A stretch of 64,000 nucleotides of DNA from Phormidesmis sp. (lineage in GTDB: Bacteria; Cyanobacteriota; Cyanobacteriia; Leptolyngbyales; Leptolyngbyaceae): contig CBDFJR010000005.1 of the NCBI GenBank assembly GCA_965248535.1, positions 1,056,001 through 1,120,000 on the forward strand, given 5' to 3'. A model generated the notes under the pieces. The model did no database searches. It had not been told where the DNA came from and saw nothing but the letters and a program-made list of their open reading frames with translations. Positions within the stretch are counted from its first letter, which is position 1. Each line of letters opens with the position of its first letter. Both the position numbers and the translations under genes were made by a program. Of the stretch, positions 413 through 9,495 are shown in pieces.

Positions 413-748
413 TTAAGCGATCGCATAACCCGTATGGGGTCGCACATTGGCAGGATGAAAGCCTAACACAATCTGATCTTTTGGAATTCCTGCATTGACG
501 AGTTCGTGGGTCACACCGTCTTCGGTTTCATCCCGTTGCACCCAAATTTTGCCGTCAATGATGTCTAAGTGAATCAAGCACCCGTGAACGCGAGTTTTGC
601 GATCCCAGCCTAGGGTGATGAGGATATAGCTATCGTGGGTTTCGTCAAAGACGGGTTTGCAGATCAGTTCTCCGTGGGAGTAGGGAATTTGGGTGTAGGG
701 AATCAGAATATCTTTGATGAGTTGGCGGTAGTGGGCTAGTTTTTCCAT
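413..748 (-). CDS. xisI: XisI family protein
   Basis: Motifs HGCLIHLDIIDGKIWVQRDETE and GIPKDQIVLGFHP. Confidence 0.92.
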   Translation of the reverse strand: MEKLAHYRQLIKDILIPYTQIPYSHGELICKPVFDETHDSYILITLGWDRKTRVHGCLIHLDIIDGKIWVQRDETEDGVTHELVNAGIPKDQIVLGFHPANVRPHTGYAIA

Positions 749-1152
749 TGCAGAATGACCTCTTGTTCAGCGTCAAATACAATCAGCTTGAGATTTTCAT
801 CTTCAATCATCAGTTGTCCGATCGGTTCCTCAAATAGAGAATTGAACACTATATCGTTCACAGCCATGTAGAGCTTATAGTCTGGGTAAGTTCGACGCAT
901 GACAGCGCGATAGATGGCATACTGCCCAATGGCATCACGGAAGGCTTCCATCTCGGAAGCACTGATAAAACTTTTAACCTCAACGGCGATTTTCTCTTCT
1001 GCGCGTGTTGCCACGATCAAGCGTTTTGCACCCAGGTCAACATACATATCTTTCCGTCCCCAGCGTAGGTGAAGTGGGTCATGCGTAATGATCCAGCCAT
1101 CTGTGGTGAGTGCTTGTTTGACAGCATCATGGTAGAGGTCAAAGGCTGGCAT
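736..1152 (-). CDS. xisH: XisH family protein (PD-(D/E)XK nuclease fold)
   Basis: HDAVKQAL..DGWIITHDP, IAVEVKSF, AIGQY; 13-nt overlap with xisI. Confidence 0.92.
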   Translation of the reverse strand: MPAFDLYHDAVKQALTTDGWIITHDPLHLRWGRKDMYVDLGAKRLIVATRAEEKIAVEVKSFISASEMEAFRDAIGQYAIYRAVMRRTYPDYKLYMAVNDIVFNSLFEEPIGQLMIEDENLKLIVFDAEQEVILQWKN

Positions 1153-1188: not shown

Positions 1189-1428
1189 TTATCCATGAAT
1201 GTCTCTCTAGGCTTTCAGTCGTTGACGTTGAGCAGAGACCACTAGCTCTAGCGCTTTGACTGCAATGTCTCGTTTGCCTCGGTATTCGATGATTTCGGGC
1301 TGTGCTGTCTTGCTGCCCAAGCTAATTTTAACTTCACTATCGGCGCTAATGACATGAATATGTGACGATCGCTTACCGTCGAAGTAGATGACCGCCCTAA
1401 GACCATCTTTTCGTAACACGGTTGGCAT
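1189..1428 (-). pseudogene. DUF4160-like toxin-antitoxin gene with a premature stop
   Basis: MPTVLRKDG..HIHV start; the frame continues LKA*RDIHG*, consistent with TGG changed to TAG at 1207-1209. Confidence 0.65.
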
Positions 1429-1769
1429 GTTTTCTCTAGTGCGATCGCGCCTGCCTAAATGGGCGATCGTAAGTCCCTATCATCCATCTGCGGAGGTACG
1501 ATCGCTGTCATAGCGGAGAGGTGGAATCGCTACTAGAGCAAGAAACTAGGTATCCCTATTTCTTAAAGAATGGAAAATAATCACCCATTTCTAGAGACCG
1601 TAGGGAGTCAGGTTTCTGAAATTGGACTTTTTCCTCTATCCTTTACTAAATATCACTACCTATTCTTGCCTTGAGTTCCAACTTTGCCCTGATACCTTCT
1701 GTAAAACTTCCATAGCAGACTAGAATGAGCTAACCACTTACAAAACTCAAACACTTATTTCTGCTGGAT

Positions 1770-2201
1770 ATGGAGGATTATCAAAATGCTTTCTCAGAGC
1801 GTCACACTGATACCGAAGCATTATGTAACTCTGGGAGGAAAATAGCTGCTATGCACTTCGGCGGTATTACAATCGAATGTTTACTCAAGGCAATGATCGT
1901 TGCCTCGTTATCAAAAAGCGTGTCTAAGGAATGGAAAACAGATTCTGTTGATCCCGGACACACTATCACTAACCCCGGACACAGTTATGGTGAAGCGCTT
2001 AAGCGACACAACCGATTGAATTCTAGGATTCAGAAGTTTCCAGAGGTAATGAAATGGCTCCAGGATATCGAATGTCCAAACCAGCATTTCATAGATATGC
2101 GCTATTCTTGCAACGAGCCTGATGATAAGAGCTATAAATGTTGGTTAGACTCATATCAGCGGCTCAAAGGATGGTTACAGAAACAAGCCAATCAACTTTA
2201 A
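1770..2201 (+). CDS. HEPN-like domain protein
   Basis: IECLLKA, GHSYGEAL and MRY motifs typical of HEPN; 143 aa. Confidence 0.6.
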   Translation: MEDYQNAFSERHTDTEALCNSGRKIAAMHFGGITIECLLKAMIVASLSKSVSKEWKTDSVDPGHTITNPGHSYGEALKRHNRLNSRIQKFPEVMKWLQDIECPNQHFIDMRYSCNEPDDKSYKCWLDSYQRLKGWLQKQANQL

Positions 2202-2210
2202 AGAGGGGAG

Positions 2211-4910
2211 ATGCAGGAAACTTGGCAAGAAAGACTGAAGCAGCAACTTACAACCCAGTACATAGGAAGATCCCAGGACTGGGTTGGTATAAACATTTCT
2301 ACATCTGGCTTACTGAATTTAACTATCGTGAGCGATAGTTTTTCTGATTTGTCCATACCTCAGCGTAGGGAAATCATATTAAATTTCTTACAACAGTCAC
2401 GAGTTTCTCTATCCCCAGGTTTTTTATCTCTCTATACGCCACAAGAGGCTGAATCTCTTAATCTGTCGCAACCACAAGCTGTTAATGGAGACTCAGTACA
2501 CACTTGGCAAGATTTAGCTTTACAAGCAGCTAACCCCCAAAATCAATCACAGCCTGCTCAACGTGAACCAAGTGTTCCTCGAACTGTAACATTTTATTCT
2601 TTCAAAGGGGGAGTAGGTCGAACTACAGCATTAACGCATGTTGCATGGATTCTTGCGTTACGTGGTCGCAAAATTGTAGCTGTTGATTTGGATTTGGAAG
2701 CGCCTGGATTAAGTACAGCGTTTAACTTGAATCCTCAACCAAAGTATGGAATTGTCGACTATTTTTATGAACGTTCCTATTTGCCAGAGGGGGTAGAACC
2801 TAATATCTCAGTAGCTCAAATATTCGGTGAAGTTAAAATACCTAACGCTACAGGAAGATTGTTTGTCGTTCCTGCTGGAACTCTTGACCTCGACTATATC
2901 TCTAAAGTTGATGATCTACGAGCAACTACCGTTACTGATACTGGCGACAACCTCTGGTCTATTTTTAGCCGCGAAATTCAAGAACAGTTAAAACCAGATA
3001 TTCTATTAATTGATTCACGAACTGGAATTAATCAATGGGGGGCTTTATCACTACTACAAGCAGCAGATGAAGTAATCGTATTTTTATTTCCAAATGAGCA
3101 AAATCGTCAGGGAATTAGTTTACTTCTACAATCACTTCAATCCTTTAGAGATCTATCTATAAATTTTGTATTTACTCCAGTTCCTGATACTACCGAAGTT
3201 GGGATGACTAAGGTAAAAAGGATTTGGAAGTTCTTATATGAAGCGGTTAAGAATAGAGCGAGTGAAGATGATGACACAATTGAAGATTCATCCAGAGAAA
3301 GTGAGTCCGATTTAGATGACTCATTTGCCGAAGTAGAGCCATTAGTGGTTCCTTACTTACCCCCAATTGCTTTAGCTGATAGTTATCCTGTACCAGCACT
3401 TCTAGATTACTATACTCGAATTGCTAACCTGATTGACGAAGAAACTGACGAGCTTCAACGGAAAACTATCTTAACTGGTTCAAATCGTCGATGGAGCATT
3501 ATTAAAAACCTTCAATTTCCTGAAGTTAATGCGGCTGACCCACAGCAAGATCTGAGTTTGCTATTTCAGCGAACCACTGATTTTGAAAAATTTCTAGACA
3601 ATACTAACTGTCTTATTAGAGGACGGAAGGGAACTGGTAAAACCGCTCTGTACTGGCTTTTACTAAAACATAACAAGGTTGCTCAACAATTGGCTCATGG
3701 TCGGTTAGATGACACCATTTGCTTTTCTGGTCATGGTAGGTTTCATGAGAGTCGTCCATCGCGTGACGAGTTCCAAGTGATTCACAGGGGTCTACAAGAA
3801 AATAATGGCTCATGGGAAGCATTCTGGAGAGCTTATTTACTGTTTAGGATCGTCAAAGAAAATGGCTTCAGCTTCCCCAAAGGTAGAAAAGGGGAGAAGT
3901 TTACTGAGATGAAAAGAATTATTAATGAGCTGCCTGGTGAAAGATGGCAGTATGAACACACTCAAGATCTGCTTCATCTATCCAGCGACTCTAATCTGCT
4001 TCTCATTGTCAAGGATGCTTTAGATACCTTTAACGAGCAGGTACAAAATCAATCCAAAACACTGTGGTTTCTGTATGATGATTTAGATGAAGATTTTCCT
4101 GAAAAAGATGAGGTAAGGCATCAAGCTCTGATTGGCTTATTTCAACTTATTCAAGCTTGTGACGCAAGAAAGATAATATCGATTCGGTTCAAGATTTTCT
4201 TAAGAGAAGATATTTGGAATCGTTTAAGTTTTGACAATAAAAGCCATTTCAATGGACGTGATCTTCTTTTACAGTGGAATCGGGTTGATTTTCTTAGACT
4301 TGCACTTCGCCAAGCAACCCAGTCTAAGGAATTCAAGAGCTTAGTAGATCGGTTTTCTCCTGTCGAAAGCATTGATCAAGCCAGTGAGGAAGCTGTTGAT
4401 CGAGCGTTAGAACTTCTCTGGGGAAGCCGTCGCAGATCAGGCACCAAAGCTAAGTATGTAACAAGATGGGTCTATGAGCGTCTTACAGATTCAAGTAGTA
4501 CTACCTTTCCTCGCAGTTTGAGCATTTTGTTGAGAGGGGCAAAAGAGCAGGAACTAACCTATGAAGGACAACCCTCAAAACAAACACCCACAGACCGTTT
4601 ATTACGAGGAACCTCTCTTGAGATTGGACTAAAGAAAGCCTCGGAAGAGCGTTGTCATGCAGTTAGAGAGGAATATCCTGATTTGAGAAAATTCTTTGAC
4701 TCTCTTAAAGCGATGCAAGCTCTATTATCAAAGGAAGAATTGCAAACTATATGGCAAGAATCTGCACAAAATGTCTCATCGGAATATGATGATTTTTCGG
4801 ATTTACTGAGCGAGATTGGTATCGCTGAATGGCGTGAGAAGGATCAGCGCTATAAATTTGCGGACATCTATGTATATGGGTTTGAGATGATTCGTAAAGG
4901 TGCAGTCTAG
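2211..4910 (+). CDS. Multidomain ATPase: ParA/MinD-like KGGVGR domain plus a second P-loop ATPase (Sll1717-like)
   Basis: SFKGGVGRTT, VDLDLEAPG and IDSRTG; then GRKGTGKT, FLYDDLDE, KIFLREDIW and FPR; RBS GAGGGG upstream. Confidence 0.75.
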   Translation: MQETWQERLKQQLTTQYIGRSQDWVGINISTSGLLNLTIVSDSFSDLSIPQRREIILNFLQQSRVSLSPGFLSLYTPQEAESLNLSQPQAVNGDSVHTWQDLALQAANPQNQSQPAQREPSVPRTVTFYSFKGGVGRTTALTHVAWILALRGRKIVAVDLDLEAPGLSTAFNLNPQPKYGIVDYFYERSYLPEGVEPNISVAQIFGEVKIPNATGRLFVVPAGTLDLDYISKVDDLRATTVTDTGDNLWSIFSREIQEQLKPDILLIDSRTGINQWGALSLLQAADEVIVFLFPNEQNRQGISLLLQSLQSFRDLSINFVFTPVPDTTEVGMTKVKRIWKFLYEAVKNRASEDDDTIEDSSRESESDLDDSFAEVEPLVVPYLPPIALADSYPVPALLDYYTRIANLIDEETDELQRKTILTGSNRRWSIIKNLQFPEVNAADPQQDLSLLFQRTTDFEKFLDNTNCLIRGRKGTGKTALYWLLLKHNKVAQQLAHGRLDDTICFSGHGRFHESRPSRDEFQVIHRGLQENNGSWEAFWRAYLLFRIVKENGFSFPKGRKGEKFTEMKRIINELPGERWQYEHTQDLLHLSSDSNLLLIVKDALDTFNEQVQNQSKTLWFLYDDLDEDFPEKDEVRHQALIGLFQLIQACDARKIISIRFKIFLREDIWNRLSFDNKSHFNGRDLLLQWNRVDFLRLALRQATQSKEFKSLVDRFSPVESIDQASEEAVDRALELLWGSRRRSGTKAKYVTRWVYERLTDSSSTTFPRSLSILLRGAKEQELTYEGQPSKQTPTDRLLRGTSLEIGLKKASEERCHAVREEYPDLRKFFDSLKAMQALLSKEELQTIWQESAQNVSSEYDDFSDLLSEIGIAEWREKDQRYKFADIYVYGFEMIRKGAV

Positions 4911-5131
4911 ATGGTGTCATGCACTTTTGAATCCAATACTCATGAACCATCTGACCATCAATATTACAAAGGGAGTCAGGTGAAATCTGATTAACGTGTC
5001 TGGGAACCGCTCGCAATCTCGCGCTAATCGTCGAAACCGCGACATCTAGTGCAAAACTGCGTTCTCTTACCCAGTCCCTTGAGAGGAGAAACTCTCCTCC
5101 ATTACTGTGCTCTCTACTACCCATCTTCTGC

Positions 5132-5443
5132 TGCGCCGATCGCATTTGGACGAGAGAACTCGACTTTATCAAAGTCAAAGACAAAAACCATCCGGTTGTA
5201 ATTTATGAACTAGTGGGGCTGCGATCGGAGACGGTTTCTGACCAAAAGCAGCAAGTGGTTGAGCACTATGAAAAAGGCCGACGGCACTATTTAGCTCGCA
5301 AATTTGCCTCCGCAGTGGCCGAGTTTGCCATGGTTTTAGAAACTGATAGCCGTGACAAAGCGGCGGCCCTGCACATGGAGCGCTGTCAACATTGGCTCAA
5401 AAATCCCCCAAATGATGAGTGGGATAGCAGTTGGAAATATTAA
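5132..5443 (+). pseudogene. C-terminal remnant of a class III adenylate/guanylate cyclase
   Basis: ADRIWTRELDFIKVKDKNHPVVIYELVG...ERCQHWLKNPPNDEWD; no catalytic N-terminal part. Confidence 0.7.
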
Positions 5444-5521: not shown

Positions 5522-5899
5522 GGGGCTGTAACGGTTTCGACAGGTTGGCGAACGTCACAACGTGATTCAGGTCGAGAGCGAGTCCACTCTCGTAAATATC
5601 GGCTCAAAACACAGTACATGCGAACAACATTGTACCCTTCGCTCGTAAAGCAGTCACTGCCTAAAAACCCCTAGCGGTTCGAGCGTCTACGATTTGACAC
5701 CGTTAAGGATCGTAGAACAACCCCAACGGTCGCTCTAGACGATCGCCTCAAGTCGGTTTTCTAGCTAAGACAATACTTGAGAATCCTCCCGTTCGGGATA
5801 ATGAACGGTTCCCGCTTTGAGGACTAGAGAAGCTAAACCTGTGAATGAGCGGTGTGCTAATACCCAATTTGGACACGGGTTCGACTCCCGTCAGCTCCA
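5522..5899 (+). ncRNA. ssrA: tmRNA; tag peptide ANNIVPFARKAVTA at 5620-5664
   Basis: 5' GGGGCTGTAACGGTTTCGAC, 3' T-arm GGGTTCGACTCCCGTCAGCTCCA, cyanobacterial-type tag frame. Confidence 0.97.
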
Positions 5900-5908
5900 C
5901 TAAAAACC

Positions 5909-5978: not shown

Positions 5979-6347
5979 CTATTTAGCAAACGATTGACCA
6001 ACGCCTTTTTCTGCAAAGTACTGACTTAAGAAGGTGTTAGTCAATGAAAGGACGATGGGTGCCAGCACGATCGCTAGCCAGCCATGCACCGCAAACCCAG
6101 GCACCAAAAGCGACGCTAGCCAAAAACAAACGCCATTAACGACGAGTGAAAACGATCCTAGGGTCACAAAGGTGATCGGCAGTGAGAGCATCGATAAGAC
6201 TGGTTTAACAAACGCATTCACCAATCCAATCGAGACTGCGGCTAACAATGCAGCTAAGAACGTGTTGATATCCACTCCGGGAATGGCAAGGTCAACCACT
6301 AATAAACTCAGCGCAGTCGTTAAAGTAGTCAGAAAAAATCCAAGCAT
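5979..6347 (-). CDS. Phage holin-like family membrane protein (YvlD/DUF360)
   Basis: Four hydrophobic segments, GLVNAFVKPVL..LSLP.TF.TLG.FSLVVNG; start taken at MLGFF. Confidence 0.85.
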   Translation of the reverse strand: MLGFFLTTLTTALSLLVVDLAIPGVDINTFLAALLAAVSIGLVNAFVKPVLSMLSLPITFVTLGSFSLVVNGVCFWLASLLVPGFAVHGWLAIVLAPIVLSLTNTFLSQYFAEKGVGQSFAK

Positions 6348-6371
6348 TGTGTATCTCCTCATCCAAGTAAG

Positions 6372-7224: not shown

Positions 7225-7488
7225 CTAGCTGACTGCAACAGTCTTTGAACTAGCACCGTTTGTTTTGCGCGTTTTCAACTGTTCTAAAAGAAGTTGAGAG
7301 ACTTCAGTTATCAGAACGGTGGCAATCACGCCATCGTCAATCCAGCCTAAAATCGGTAGCGCATCGGTCGCTAAATTGAAGGGACTCACGAGATAAAGCA
7401 AACTGCCTAACACGATCGCCCAGCGATATTTAGAATTCTGTAGAGTGGCGCGATACCAGGCATAGAGAGGCTGTGTGAGAAATTTCAT
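7225..7488 (-). CDS. YkvA/DUF1232 family protein
   Basis: YLVSPFNLATDALPILGWIDDG; start taken at MKFL. Confidence 0.85.
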   Translation of the reverse strand: MKFLTQPLYAWYRATLQNSKYRWAIVLGSLLYLVSPFNLATDALPILGWIDDGVIATVLITEVSQLLLEQLKTRKTNGASSKTVAVS

Positions 7489-7861
7489 CGGGTGCCTTTT
7501 GGTTGACAAGACTATCTTCGCAAACCTCTTGCTAGATTTCTGGTGTTGATAACCCACGATTTTGTCGTAGCATTCCCACCTCATAGAGTTATGCAATCGT
7601 CTTAGCGTTAAAAAACTGTAAAAACCGTTTCAGTTTTGCATTTTAGATAAATGTGCATCAGTCTGGGGGCTGATATTAGGTGGCTTGATAGTAGAGCGAA
7701 CTATAGGGTTTACGTTAGCCCTCCGCTTTTTTGCCTCGTTTGGCTGATTGCAGCAAAATAGACCCTAAGAGAGAATTATTTGGTAGTCTTTGTTACAGAA
7801 ATCTATTAGGATTGGGATATCTAAAACATTTTCTGACGTAGAATTCTGTCATTTGTGAATC

Positions 7862-8262: not shown

Positions 8263-9495
8263 CTACGGGGTTCCTCTAGGGGGGGTGAACCCCGATCGAT
8301 TTAGCCGTTCTTCGATCTGCCATAGCAAAGCAAAGTCTTCTTCAGGTAGAGTCGCGATCGCCGCTTCTTCTAAAAAGCTAAACGCTTGACGAAACTCTTG
8401 AGGAGTGGCAGAGATCGGGGCCTCTAAATGGCAGGGAACAATCCGTTCAAAGTCCCACGTTGCCACCTGATCTGCCCACGCTAACGTTTGTTTGGGCGAT
8501 CGGTTGAGAATGATTGTTTGCAGAATCGGAGCTACCAACAGTCGTCCGTTTCCTCGCAGAGCCTCAAACGATCGCTGCCAGTCTTCTCGCCATTTGAAGG
8601 GGAACAGTCCAAAATAGGCTTTTTTGGAGCGATCGCAGGCTGTTAGCGCATCGCGTAAGACTGAGCCAAGTCTGAGAGGCTCTAGCGCGCCGGGGCGAAA
8701 ATAAAACGCAAACAAAGCCATGCGCCACCAGCCTTTGCGACGATTAGCTGGCGTGTCTTTGACCTGATCAGACGCAGAATCTTTGGCATGAAACAGCAGT
8801 GGATAGGGGTCAAGCTGCACGATCGCGGATGGATCTTCAGGAACAGAAAGAACTGAATCGGTGACCAAAAGCGTGCCCGATCGTCGATGGAAAAATGCCA
8901 CCTCACCAAACGAACCTGCCCCTAAATCAATGGTGAGAATGGCATAGTCAAAGTCGTGATAGAAGGGCGTTTTGCTGCTATCTTCTGGTAGGGTTTGAGT
9001 GCGCTGACCCGGAAACCCAAGCCAGCTTAACGGCAGATCGATCGGAAAGCTCCACTGATGCGGCGCAACAAAAATCTGGGCATTAGGAAACTGTCTCGCA
9101 AACGGCCCGACAAAGACTTTGTGTTCTAACCCCGATGAAGTTGGCAGAACAATATATCGCACGTCACCGTGGTCTGCCACCAACTCCTTGACCAGTCGAA
9201 TACATTCCAGAGTCGGCGCAACGGGGGCATAGACCAACAATCCTCCTGCTTCGAGTTTGATCACCGTCATCCGAATCGGCACAACGACATAAAAAATGCC
9301 TTGGATCTGGTCAAACGTCCAAATCGTGTCTTTGAGAAGTTCTGTGCGAAGGGTTTGGCGCTGACCGTAGGGATAGAGCGGCACCAGTTGCCAAAACCGC
9401 CACGACCAATCATCAGAACGACTCTTTGAGTGATTGCCTAATTCTGTCTGGTTGGTGACACGCTTCATAACCCGCTCCGCTTTGCCTGATCTCAT
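8263..9495 (-). CDS. DUF4336 domain protein
   Basis: VPIRMTVIKL..GGLLVYAPVAPT, EHKVF, WDFERIVPCH. Confidence 0.88.
   Translation of the reverse strand: MRSGKAERVMKRVTNQTELGNHSKSRSDDWSWRFWQLVPLYPYGQRQTLRTELLKDTIWTFDQIQGIFYVVVPIRMTVIKLEAGGLLVYAPVAPTLECIRLVKELVADHGDVRYIVLPTSSGLEHKVFVGPFARQFPNAQIFVAPHQWSFPIDLPLSWLGFPGQRTQTLPEDSSKTPFYHDFDYAILTIDLGAGSFGEVAFFHRRSGTLLVTDSVLSVPEDPSAIVQLDPYPLLFHAKDSASDQVKDTPANRRKGWWRMALFAFYFRPGALEPLRLGSVLRDALTACDRSKKAYFGLFPFKWREDWQRSFEALRGNGRLLVAPILQTIILNRSPKQTLAWADQVATWDFERIVPCHLEAPISATPQEFRQAFSFLEEAAIATLPEEDFALLWQIEERLNRSGFTPPRGTP

Follow-up and report, generated by a model that had tools for sequence, protein, structure and literature searches.

A two-gene cassette at positions 1770 to 4910 of a 64,000-nucleotide (nt) stretch of Phormidesmis sp. 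DNA (contig CBDFJR010000005.1; the whole stretch that was analysed is called the window below) very probably belongs to a candidate immune system that has already been catalogued, as PDC-M28 in PADLOC-DB v2 and as HINPO in a recent preprint (Li, Burroughs & Aravind, bioRxiv 22 Oct 2026, 10.64898/2026.10.19.760177; called the HINPO preprint below and cited for its accessible text). Gene 1 of the cassette encodes a small divergent HEPN protein, and gene 2, as read from its sequence, places the cassette in the subtype in which the ParA protein is fused to an ORC/Cdc6-like ATPase. A preliminary description of this DNA had proposed a candidate defence system that it did not recognise as a named one. 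The proposal agrees with the two independent computational catalogues, both of which class the architecture in this way; a match to an already described system, which that description had itself put down as a refutation, is nevertheless what we found, and the locus is known as a predicted system rather than an unnamed one. We assign a probability of about 55% to an immune mechanism for the cassette.

Architecture and linkage of the cassette

The cassette consists of two co-oriented genes 9 nt apart, as the preliminary description had it. Its features, in window coordinates, are as follows.

1739 to 1769, forward strand: conserved leader just 5' of gene 1, from blastn and a MAFFT alignment of 81 upstream regions
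1770 to 2201, forward strand: gene 1, an open reading frame (ORF) of 143 amino acids (aa); divergent PF05168-type HEPN, PADLOC PDC-M28A-like
2202 to 2210, forward strand: 9-nt intergenic spacer with the purine-rich ribosome-binding stretch of gene 2, GAGGGGAG, by direct reading of the sequence
2211 to 4910, forward strand: gene 2, an ORF of 899 aa; small N-terminal domain, Arg-variant ParA and ORC/Cdc6-STAND-like AAA+ module
2211 to 2555, forward strand: small N-terminal domain of gene 2, residues 1–115, BolA-like by sequence
2577 to 3140, forward strand: ParA/MinD-type domain of the KGGVGR variant family, residues 123–310 (NCBIfam AAA_KGGVGR)
2604 to 2624, forward strand: deviant Walker A KGGVGRT with Arg for the P-loop Lys, residues 132–138, invariant in 24 of 24 sequences
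2685 to 2708, forward strand: DLDLEAPG, the DxD sensor-1 followed by the PG motif; D159, D161, P165 and G166 invariant
3525 to 4862, forward strand: ORC/Cdc6-STAND-like AAA+ module, residues 439–884 (NCBIfam Sll1717 family, NF047389)
3621 to 3644, forward strand: canonical Walker A GRKGTGKT of the AAA+ module, residues 471–478
4074 to 4091, forward strand: Walker B region YDDLDE of the AAA+ module, residues 622–627

The PADLOC profile PDC-M28A matches gene 1 (E = 2.4×10−8), and profiles B and C both fall in gene 2, PDC-M28B at residues 114–379 (E = 2.3×10−40) and PDC-M28C at residues 458–899 (E = 4.3×10−31).

To assess whether the two genes belong together, relatives were collected from one genome per species (185,579 genomes): 124 pattern matches were obtained, of which 94 were confirmed as gene-1 relatives and 80 kept. 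Because the search pattern was narrow, 94 is a lower bound. The 80 loci belong to Cyanobacteria except for three Chloroflexota loci and a few records labelled 'uncultured bacterium'. In all 80 loci, which were found through gene 1, the ParA part of gene 2 lies downstream of gene 1 on the same strand, and in 78 of them it begins no more than 40 nt from gene 1, the remaining two being disrupted copies. Homologous pairs thus stay linked, which the preliminary description had named as a point to check, and the cassette is a functional unit of two linked genes. The state of gene 2 in these loci is as follows.

58 of 80 loci: intact fused ORF, ≥850 aa long
7 of 80 loci: truncated by the contig end
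9 of 80 loci: complete ORF of 393–425 aa without the AAA+ part
6 of 80 loci: disrupted

Gene 1 looks intact in disrupted copies, for example in L014 and L041. In one family member of 842 aa, P0266, a single frame runs through HEPN (with an insert of about 60 aa) and the ParA part into the beginning of the AAA+ part; this is a natural fusion of all three or else an artefact of sequencing. In the plasmid collection no DNA match to the cassette was found.

Gene 1 is a divergent HEPN protein

Neither Pfam nor NCBIfam has a match for gene 1 itself, and when PDB sequences were searched with it or with the profile of its family, chance-level matches only were obtained. A profile search of a large protein set bears nothing on HEPN, since the 120 matches listed are all close cyanobacterial relatives without Pfam labels. 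The family is small, 98 clusters being matched at E ≤ 0.001 in a set of 1.84 billion representatives, and its 321 close homologues are all about 140–145 aa long and nearly all unnamed or 'hypothetical'.

Fold, a bridging family member, profile comparison and the Atlas nevertheless indicate that gene 1 is a divergent HEPN protein of the PF05168 type, as its motifs had led the preliminary description to propose. The AlphaFold2 (AF2) model of gene 1, based on a 24-sequence alignment, is all-helical (pLDDT 77), and its best PDB folds are the HEPN domains 2q00 (listed as HEPN in PMC3710099), sacsin 3o10, 4nqf, 1wol, 1ufb, 2hsb and 1o3u. HEPN entries make up 7 of the 10 best PDB fold matches, at weak E-values of 0.65–2; over the PDB fold matches the TM score relative to the query is 0.48–0.57 and the E-values are likewise weak (0.65–4.5, none below 0.001). 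The best viral fold match of the model is also labelled HEPN (E = 0.44). Moreover, P0334, the only one of 41 diverse family members above the Pfam HEPN gathering score (23.6 versus 22 bits), aligns with the gene-1 family profile built without P0334 at 95.8% probability (E = 8.3×10−9, hhalign). In the Atlas, PF05168 is carried by 26 of the 30 clusters nearest gene 1, on 16–31% of their members.

The motifs ECLLKA (residues 36–41), GH..L (within GHSYGEAL, residues 70–77) and RY (residues 111–112) all stand where the preliminary description had placed them and are conserved in relatives. R11, H71, R111 and Y112 are invariant among the 41 members, and R23, H29, G31, G32, E36, C37, L39 and K40 are at least 90% conserved. 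No Rx4-6H motif stands at the canonical HEPN position, as had been cautioned: none of the 41 members has a His 4–6 residues past R111. An R23-x5-H29 arrangement occurs near the N-terminus, where R23 is not invariant. PF05168 members often go without that His and have a conserved His elsewhere, according to Table 1 of PMC3710099 as accessible, and from the alignment the invariant H71 of gene 1 would fit such a displaced His. In eight loci (L073–L080) gene 1 is a loop-deletion variant of 129–131 aa, in which the low-confidence loop at about residues 55–68 is gone and the H71 equivalent is retained. This variant pairs with gene-2 proteins that are about 90% identical to the partners of the full-length form; between L073 and L037, for instance, gene 1 shows 64% identity and the N part of gene 2 shows 92%.

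Gene 2 fuses a variant ParA to an ORC/Cdc6-like ATPase

The view of gene 2 as a ParA-like ATPase fused to a second ATPase is supported by Pfam, NCBIfam and the fold matches of the AAA+ module, and the two P-loops and YDDLDE that had been read in it are all present and conserved in relatives. The NCBIfam models NF047398 and NF047389 both score above cut-off. AAA_KGGVGR matches with E = 1.8×10−50 (171.9 bits against a cut-off of 90), and Pfam AAA_31 and CbiA match the ParA domain as well. The Arg in Walker A (KGGVGRT) and the PG after sensor-1 (DLDLEAPG) are invariant in all 24 aligned sequences. Gene 2 departs from the KGGxGK[ST] Walker A of partition and positioning ParA/MinD proteins in that the second Lys is Arg, and all NCBIfam equivalogs for partition and MinD proteins fall far short of their cut-offs (ParA_partition, for example, 27 versus 180 bits).

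The AAA+ module matches NF047389, 'P-loop ATPase, Sll1717 family', with E = 2×10−41 (142.6 bits against a cut-off of 75). An AF2 model of residues 431–899 (pLDDT 81.5) has as top PDB folds Cdc6 (1fnn) and the archaeal AAA+ protein PAB2304 (2qen), both at E = 6.2×10−4, followed at weak E-values by SSO1545, ORC2, human ORC, RdrA, CED-4 and Apaf-1; its Atlas neighbours are labelled ORC-CDC6-like, nSTAND1 and NPHP3_N. The G, K, G, T, G and K of its Walker A and the Y, D, L and D of YDDLDE are invariant in 25 of 25 sequences. Mean column identity of the cassette proteins is 71–77% among cyanobacteria.

Residues 1–115 of gene 2 form a conserved extra domain with 61% mean column identity. The only PDB matches of a 20-sequence profile of this domain belong to the BolA family (4pui, E = 0.027; 4pug, 0.29; 2dhm, 0.63). 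Similarly, 14 of the 20 members match Pfam BolA at E ≤ 10, all below its cut-off (best E = 3.4×10−4), and no other family is matched by more than one of the 20. The gathering score of the BolA family (PF01722) is not reached, the window sequence scoring 14.0 versus 25.7 bits. At the sequence level these matches amount to a resemblance to BolA, not to membership in the family. The aligned stretch spans the LNLTIVSDxF...QR helix region, and two histidines that we take to be conserved in BolA proteins are replaced by Lys/Arg and Phe. A true BolA gene was sought among the related loci, where the best non-self match (L005:960-1196) is not BolA-like. At this position the accessible text of the HINPO preprint assigns an inactive Pol-beta nucleotidyltransferase (NTase) from structure searches.

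Composition of the cassette and its relatives

The cassette is visibly poorer in guanine plus cytosine (GC) than its surroundings, as the preliminary description had claimed: its GC is 0.405 over 3141 nt versus 0.506 in the remainder of the window, and it is the lowest-GC stretch of this length, the next non-overlapping minimum being 0.433. The cyanobacterial repeat HIP1 (GCGATCGC) occurs at 52 sites in the window where 1.6 are expected, an excess that is a mark of the cyanobacterial genome. The lack of HIP1 sites that had also been claimed holds as far as none is present between 1448 and 5969; however, this gap of 4528 nt is only the third longest in the window (after 5701 and 4584 nt), so that within the window alone the absence is not beyond chance, and it becomes significant only when loci are pooled. 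We compared 60 related loci with enough flank, 20 being omitted for a short flank or a short module. There are 31 HIP1 sites in about 190 kb of modules versus 678 in about 940 kb of flanks (0.16 versus 0.72 per kb; binomial P = 2×10−24), and in every one of the 60 loci the module is poorer in GC than its flanks, with a mean difference of 6 points. Low GC and HIP1 depletion thus run through the whole family and are typical of accessory genes. The reading of low GC as the mark of a recent island was dropped, since the family is low in GC in every host.

Genomic surroundings and possible transfer

The three closest relatives (L002, L003 and L004; 75–87% nucleotide identity) have nothing in common with the window outside 1671/1739–4910, the homology starting at 1739 in L003 and L004 and at 1671 in L002. 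In the MAFFT alignment the last 35 nt or so before the gene-1 ATG are similar among several loci, and the leader at 1739–1769 is shared by loci whose upstream DNA is otherwise unrelated, with a pattern around CAAAACTCAAAC...TTT...ATATGGA. Judged from this similarity, the segment of about 35 nt may be a leader or regulatory element of gene 1.

A quick maximum-likelihood tree of 59 intact gene-2 proteins (22 loci without an intact gene 2 were left out, and its support values need care) sets Chloroflexota apart, nests one Microcoleaceae group within Nostocaceae (SH-aLRT 97) and groups other Microcoleus sequences with Pseudanabaena. Insertion-site labels cluster strongly on this tree. Within families the site is fixed, for instance after groESL in Nostocaceae; one family does not share its site with another, nor does the window share its site with its closest relatives. 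Taken as a whole, these results suggest an accessory cassette that is now and then passed from one cyanobacterium to another and is then long kept at one site. The earlier claim of horizontal acquisition therefore stands in part: the cassette-bounded homology and the tree conflicts favor it, whereas the family-wide low GC and the fixed sites among housekeeping genes do not.

A survey of four genes on each side of the cassette gave 62 families of neighbours that recur. The surroundings do not have the character of a typical defence island. In 23 loci groES-groEL stands directly upstream on the same strand, and in 2 more it is two genes further off; a terminator-like stem and T-run can be read directly between groEL and gene 1 in Nostoc loci. 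The ure genes downstream of the cassette are also among the recurrent neighbours: in 23 Nostocales-type loci (e.g., L008:7805-13138) the cassette is followed by variable methyltransferase, radical SAM and DUF4351 genes and then by ureD-ureA-ureB. Upstream of the cassette in 9 Microcystis loci is ileS, and rpoC1, RidA and a LigT-YCII set are neighbours in Trichodesmium and Okeania.

The PD-T4-2 pair is directly downstream in 6 Microcystis loci, which are exactly those with a short gene 2. In these loci (L038, L042, L045, L047, L052 and L053; e.g., L042:10434-13529) gene 2 stops after ParA at 393–403 aa, and PD-T4-2 A and B are GmrSD_N plus a RiboL-PSP HEPN; the Microcystis loci L050, L057 and L058 have the full fused gene 2 and no PD-T4-2. 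The remaining PADLOC matches among neighbours are generic domains or untested candidates, such as PDC-S03/Uma2 in 9 loci. A Tse2-like toxin domain stands beside the cassette in 3 loci (L066:4050-5067, L074 and L075), where the ORF with this Tse2-type ADP-ribosyltransferase domain and a partner ORF are immediately upstream.

The neighbours in the window are as follows.

413 to 748, reverse strand: XisI, solid Pfam match
736 to 1152, reverse strand: XisH, solid Pfam match, overlapping XisI by 13 nt
1207 to 1428, reverse strand: 73-aa ORF with a sub-threshold DUF4160 match
4991 to 5443, forward strand: open frame of 150 codons directly after gene 2, with no start until 5213
5522 to 5900, forward strand: transfer-messenger RNA (tmRNA) gene, tag peptide ANNIVPFARKAVTA, 612 nt downstream of gene 2
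5979 to 6362, reverse strand: membrane protein of the Phage_holin_4_2 family with four transmembrane segments, downstream of the tmRNA gene
7225 to 7596, reverse strand: DUF1232 protein, downstream of the tmRNA gene
8263 to 9495, reverse strand: DUF4336 protein, downstream of the tmRNA gene

The preliminary description had called these neighbours toxin-antitoxin-like; XisI, XisH and the weak DUF4160-like ORF are small accessory genes and not classical toxin-antitoxin pairs. Nor was its broken cyclase confirmed, there being no Pfam match on 4991–5443 at E ≤ 0.01; this frame may resemble a cyclase C-terminus and could be a gene remnant. Genes for tmRNA are common insertion sites of islands, and the cassette stands on the 5' side of this one. 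The holin_4_2-like, DUF1232 and DUF4336 genes appear to be ordinary chromosomal genes.

A possible immune mechanism and its alternatives

In the mechanism that we favor at about 55%, the C-terminal ORC/Cdc6-STAND-like AAA+ module with its helical, winged-helix-like tail would recognise an invader cue, most plausibly foreign DNA, and would make the Arg-variant ParA assemble in a nucleotide-dependent manner, to act as a switch or to form a multimer on nucleic acid. The small N-terminal domain might supply a second input, a ligand or nucleic acid. The HEPN protein probably binds the ATPase and would be the RNA-directed effector which, once released or activated, would halt growth by abortive infection or dormancy. 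Sensing, assembly, RNase activity and phage protection are what we infer here, next to the observed domain identities, linkage and low GC. The immune reading is favored by the architecture, by the composition typical of accessory genes, by the decay and part loss of copies, by occasional transfer and by one adjacent validated system, PD-T4-2.

Several observations weigh against an immune function. Recurrent neighbours of the cassette are mostly housekeeping genes, and among the 62 neighbour families only PD-T4-2 A and B clearly matches a defence system named from experiments, and this in Microcystis alone. The strong conservation of the proteins is unlike that of fast-evolving immune sensors, and no relative of the gene-1 protein was found in the collections of phages and plasmids. 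RNase activity of gene 1 is uncertain because no His follows the invariant R111 at 4–6 residues. With Arg substituted for the Walker A Lys, ATP turnover may be impaired. The N-terminal domain does not resemble an NTase in sequence, and it matched no NTase family. In the literature searched we found no experiment on the function of the system; the HINPO description is purely computational, its immune function being a prediction (10.64898/2026.10.19.760177), and the 145 PDC candidates are untested by the authors' own statement in the accessible text of Payne et al. (10.1101/2024.01.29.577857).

One alternative is a toxin-antitoxin-like addiction pair, in which the ATPase would restrain a HEPN toxin through nucleotide-dependent conformational change or modification and the pair would persist because its loss is harmful, without dedicated invader sensing. 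Exactly this was proposed for a pair of a MAE_18760-family HEPN and a ParA/Soj-like ATPase, as toxin and regulator, in the accessible text of Anantharaman et al. (2013; PMC3710099), and the tight operon-like spacing and the fixed sites within lineages are in line with it. So are the nine loci that keep only HEPN and the ParA part as intact ORFs; because only these parts are kept there, the two-part core can stand alone. We nevertheless consider such a pair unlikely: HEPN comes first here whereas the ATPase takes the antitoxin position in the published pair, the HEPN is of a different family and without Rx4-6H, and a 470-aa ORC/Cdc6-STAND-like module with conserved Walker motifs exceeds the needs of an antitoxin. 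Moreover, gene 1 looks intact in six disrupted copies, which a potent toxin should forbid. That the two genes are unrelated and adjacent by chance, or that the small ORF was mis-called, has a negligible probability; nothing speaks for it beyond the missing Pfam match of gene 1, and it is refuted by the linkage in 80 of 80 loci, the 321 homologues of about 140–145 aa, the residues invariant across 41 diverse members and the single frame of P0266.

The cassette might instead be a domesticated cellular module of filamentous or colonial bacteria, vertically inherited beside groESL and serving stress- or cell-fate-linked RNA control or programmed death rather than anti-phage defence. BolA proteins are stress and morphogenesis factors, and the BolA-like N-terminal domain, the high sequence conservation, the position directly after groES-groEL in 23 loci (and near it in 2) and the occurrence in Cyanobacteria and three Chloroflexota loci all fit this possibility. 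It also agrees with the enrichment of HINPO in multicellular bacteria according to the HINPO preprint (10.64898/2026.10.19.760177, accessible text). It remains a doubtful alternative to the immune mechanism, however, given the patchy distribution (at least 94 confirmed matches in 185,579 genomes, one per species), the copies that decay or lose parts, the lower GC and HIP1 depletion in every host, the sites that vary between families and between the window and its closest relatives, and the terminator-like stem and T-run that separates groEL from gene 1 in Nostoc loci. We also hold it improbable, though worth stating, that the fused cyanobacterial family is a long-resident module with a BolA-like rather than an NTase input, one that in multicellular bacteria links a cue from stress or proteostasis to RNA control or cell death through HEPN. 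If such a BolA-input stress module, fixed beside groESL in Nostocaceae, were real, the published assignment of the N-terminal domain would need revision.

Should the predicted immune function be real, three mechanistically unusual features would come together in one immune system: a ParA-type switch at its base with Arg for the P-loop Lys, an ORC/Cdc6-like sensor coupled to that switch, and a HEPN protein, likewise coupled to it, that lacks the usual catalytic motif. The cassette occurs widely among cyanobacteria that form blooms or live in symbiosis (Microcystis, Nostoc, Planktothrix and Trichodesmium), in which phage defence is little studied.

Comparison with known systems

The cassette is like the phage defence candidate PDC-M28 in that all three profiles A, B and C match it, and unlike it in that B and C are fused here and the A match is limited to residues 2–65 of gene 1. 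The name PDC-M28 occurs in none of the main texts searched and in none of the readable supplements of PMC12881386.

HINPO stands for HEPN, inactive NTase, ParA and ORC/CDC6. According to the HINPO preprint (10.64898/2026.10.19.760177, accessible text, as throughout this paragraph), it consists of an upstream PA-HEPN1, a ConB2 ParA with an N-terminal inactive NTase, and an ORC-CDC6/STAND AAA+ protein that is fused to ParA 'in several cases'; the ConB2 ParA clade is marked by Arg for the Walker A Lys and PG after sensor-1. In its authors' prediction, invader DNA is sensed by the ORC-like part, the primary effector is ParA in multimeric form, HEPN serves as a suicide effector in a back-up role, and the N-terminal domain is a sensor of nucleotides. 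Compared by description, three of the four structural marks of HINPO are found at our locus: a small upstream HEPN gene, here 9 nt from gene 2, which fits PA-HEPN1; a ConB2 ParA with Arg for Lys and the PG motif that carries an extra N-terminal domain; and an ORC/Cdc6-STAND AAA+ partner, here fused to ParA. The N-terminal domain differs, being BolA-like by sequence here versus an inactive Pol-beta NTase in the preprint, and well conserved here (61%) versus 'rapidly evolving' there.

Other known systems share single parts with the cassette. ParA-HeH systems with a third HEPN gene, one of which was experimentally characterised in Salmonella according to the accessible text of the HINPO preprint (10.64898/2026.10.19.760177), are similar in that a ParA-like NTPase acts with a HEPN effector, and this case shows that ParA-HEPN immune systems can be real; they differ in their ConB1 ParA clade with Lys retained, their HeH sensor partner, their other HEPN family and their lack of an ORC/Cdc6 module. 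The pair of MAE_18760-family HEPN and ParA/Soj-like ATPase likewise has a small HEPN gene beside a ParA-type ATPase, although there the HEPN keeps Rx4-6H, the ATPase gene comes first and no AAA+ module is present. The AAA+ fold of gene 2 resembles CED-4, Apaf-1 and RdrA. Unlike the STAND/NLR-like and ORC-like defence ATPases (Avs/NACHT proteins and RdrA of RADAR), gene 2 has neither a fused effector nor a repeat sensor array; PADLOC gave no match of the cassette to the Avs/NACHT or RdrA families at E ≤ 0.1. By analogy, the AAA+ module may act like the STAND and ORC-like defence ATPases, by sensing followed by oligomerisation. To the existing descriptions of PDC-M28 and HINPO, the present analysis adds the linkage statistics, a signature in composition common to the family, insertion sites that are fixed by lineage and a reading of the N-terminal domain as BolA-like.

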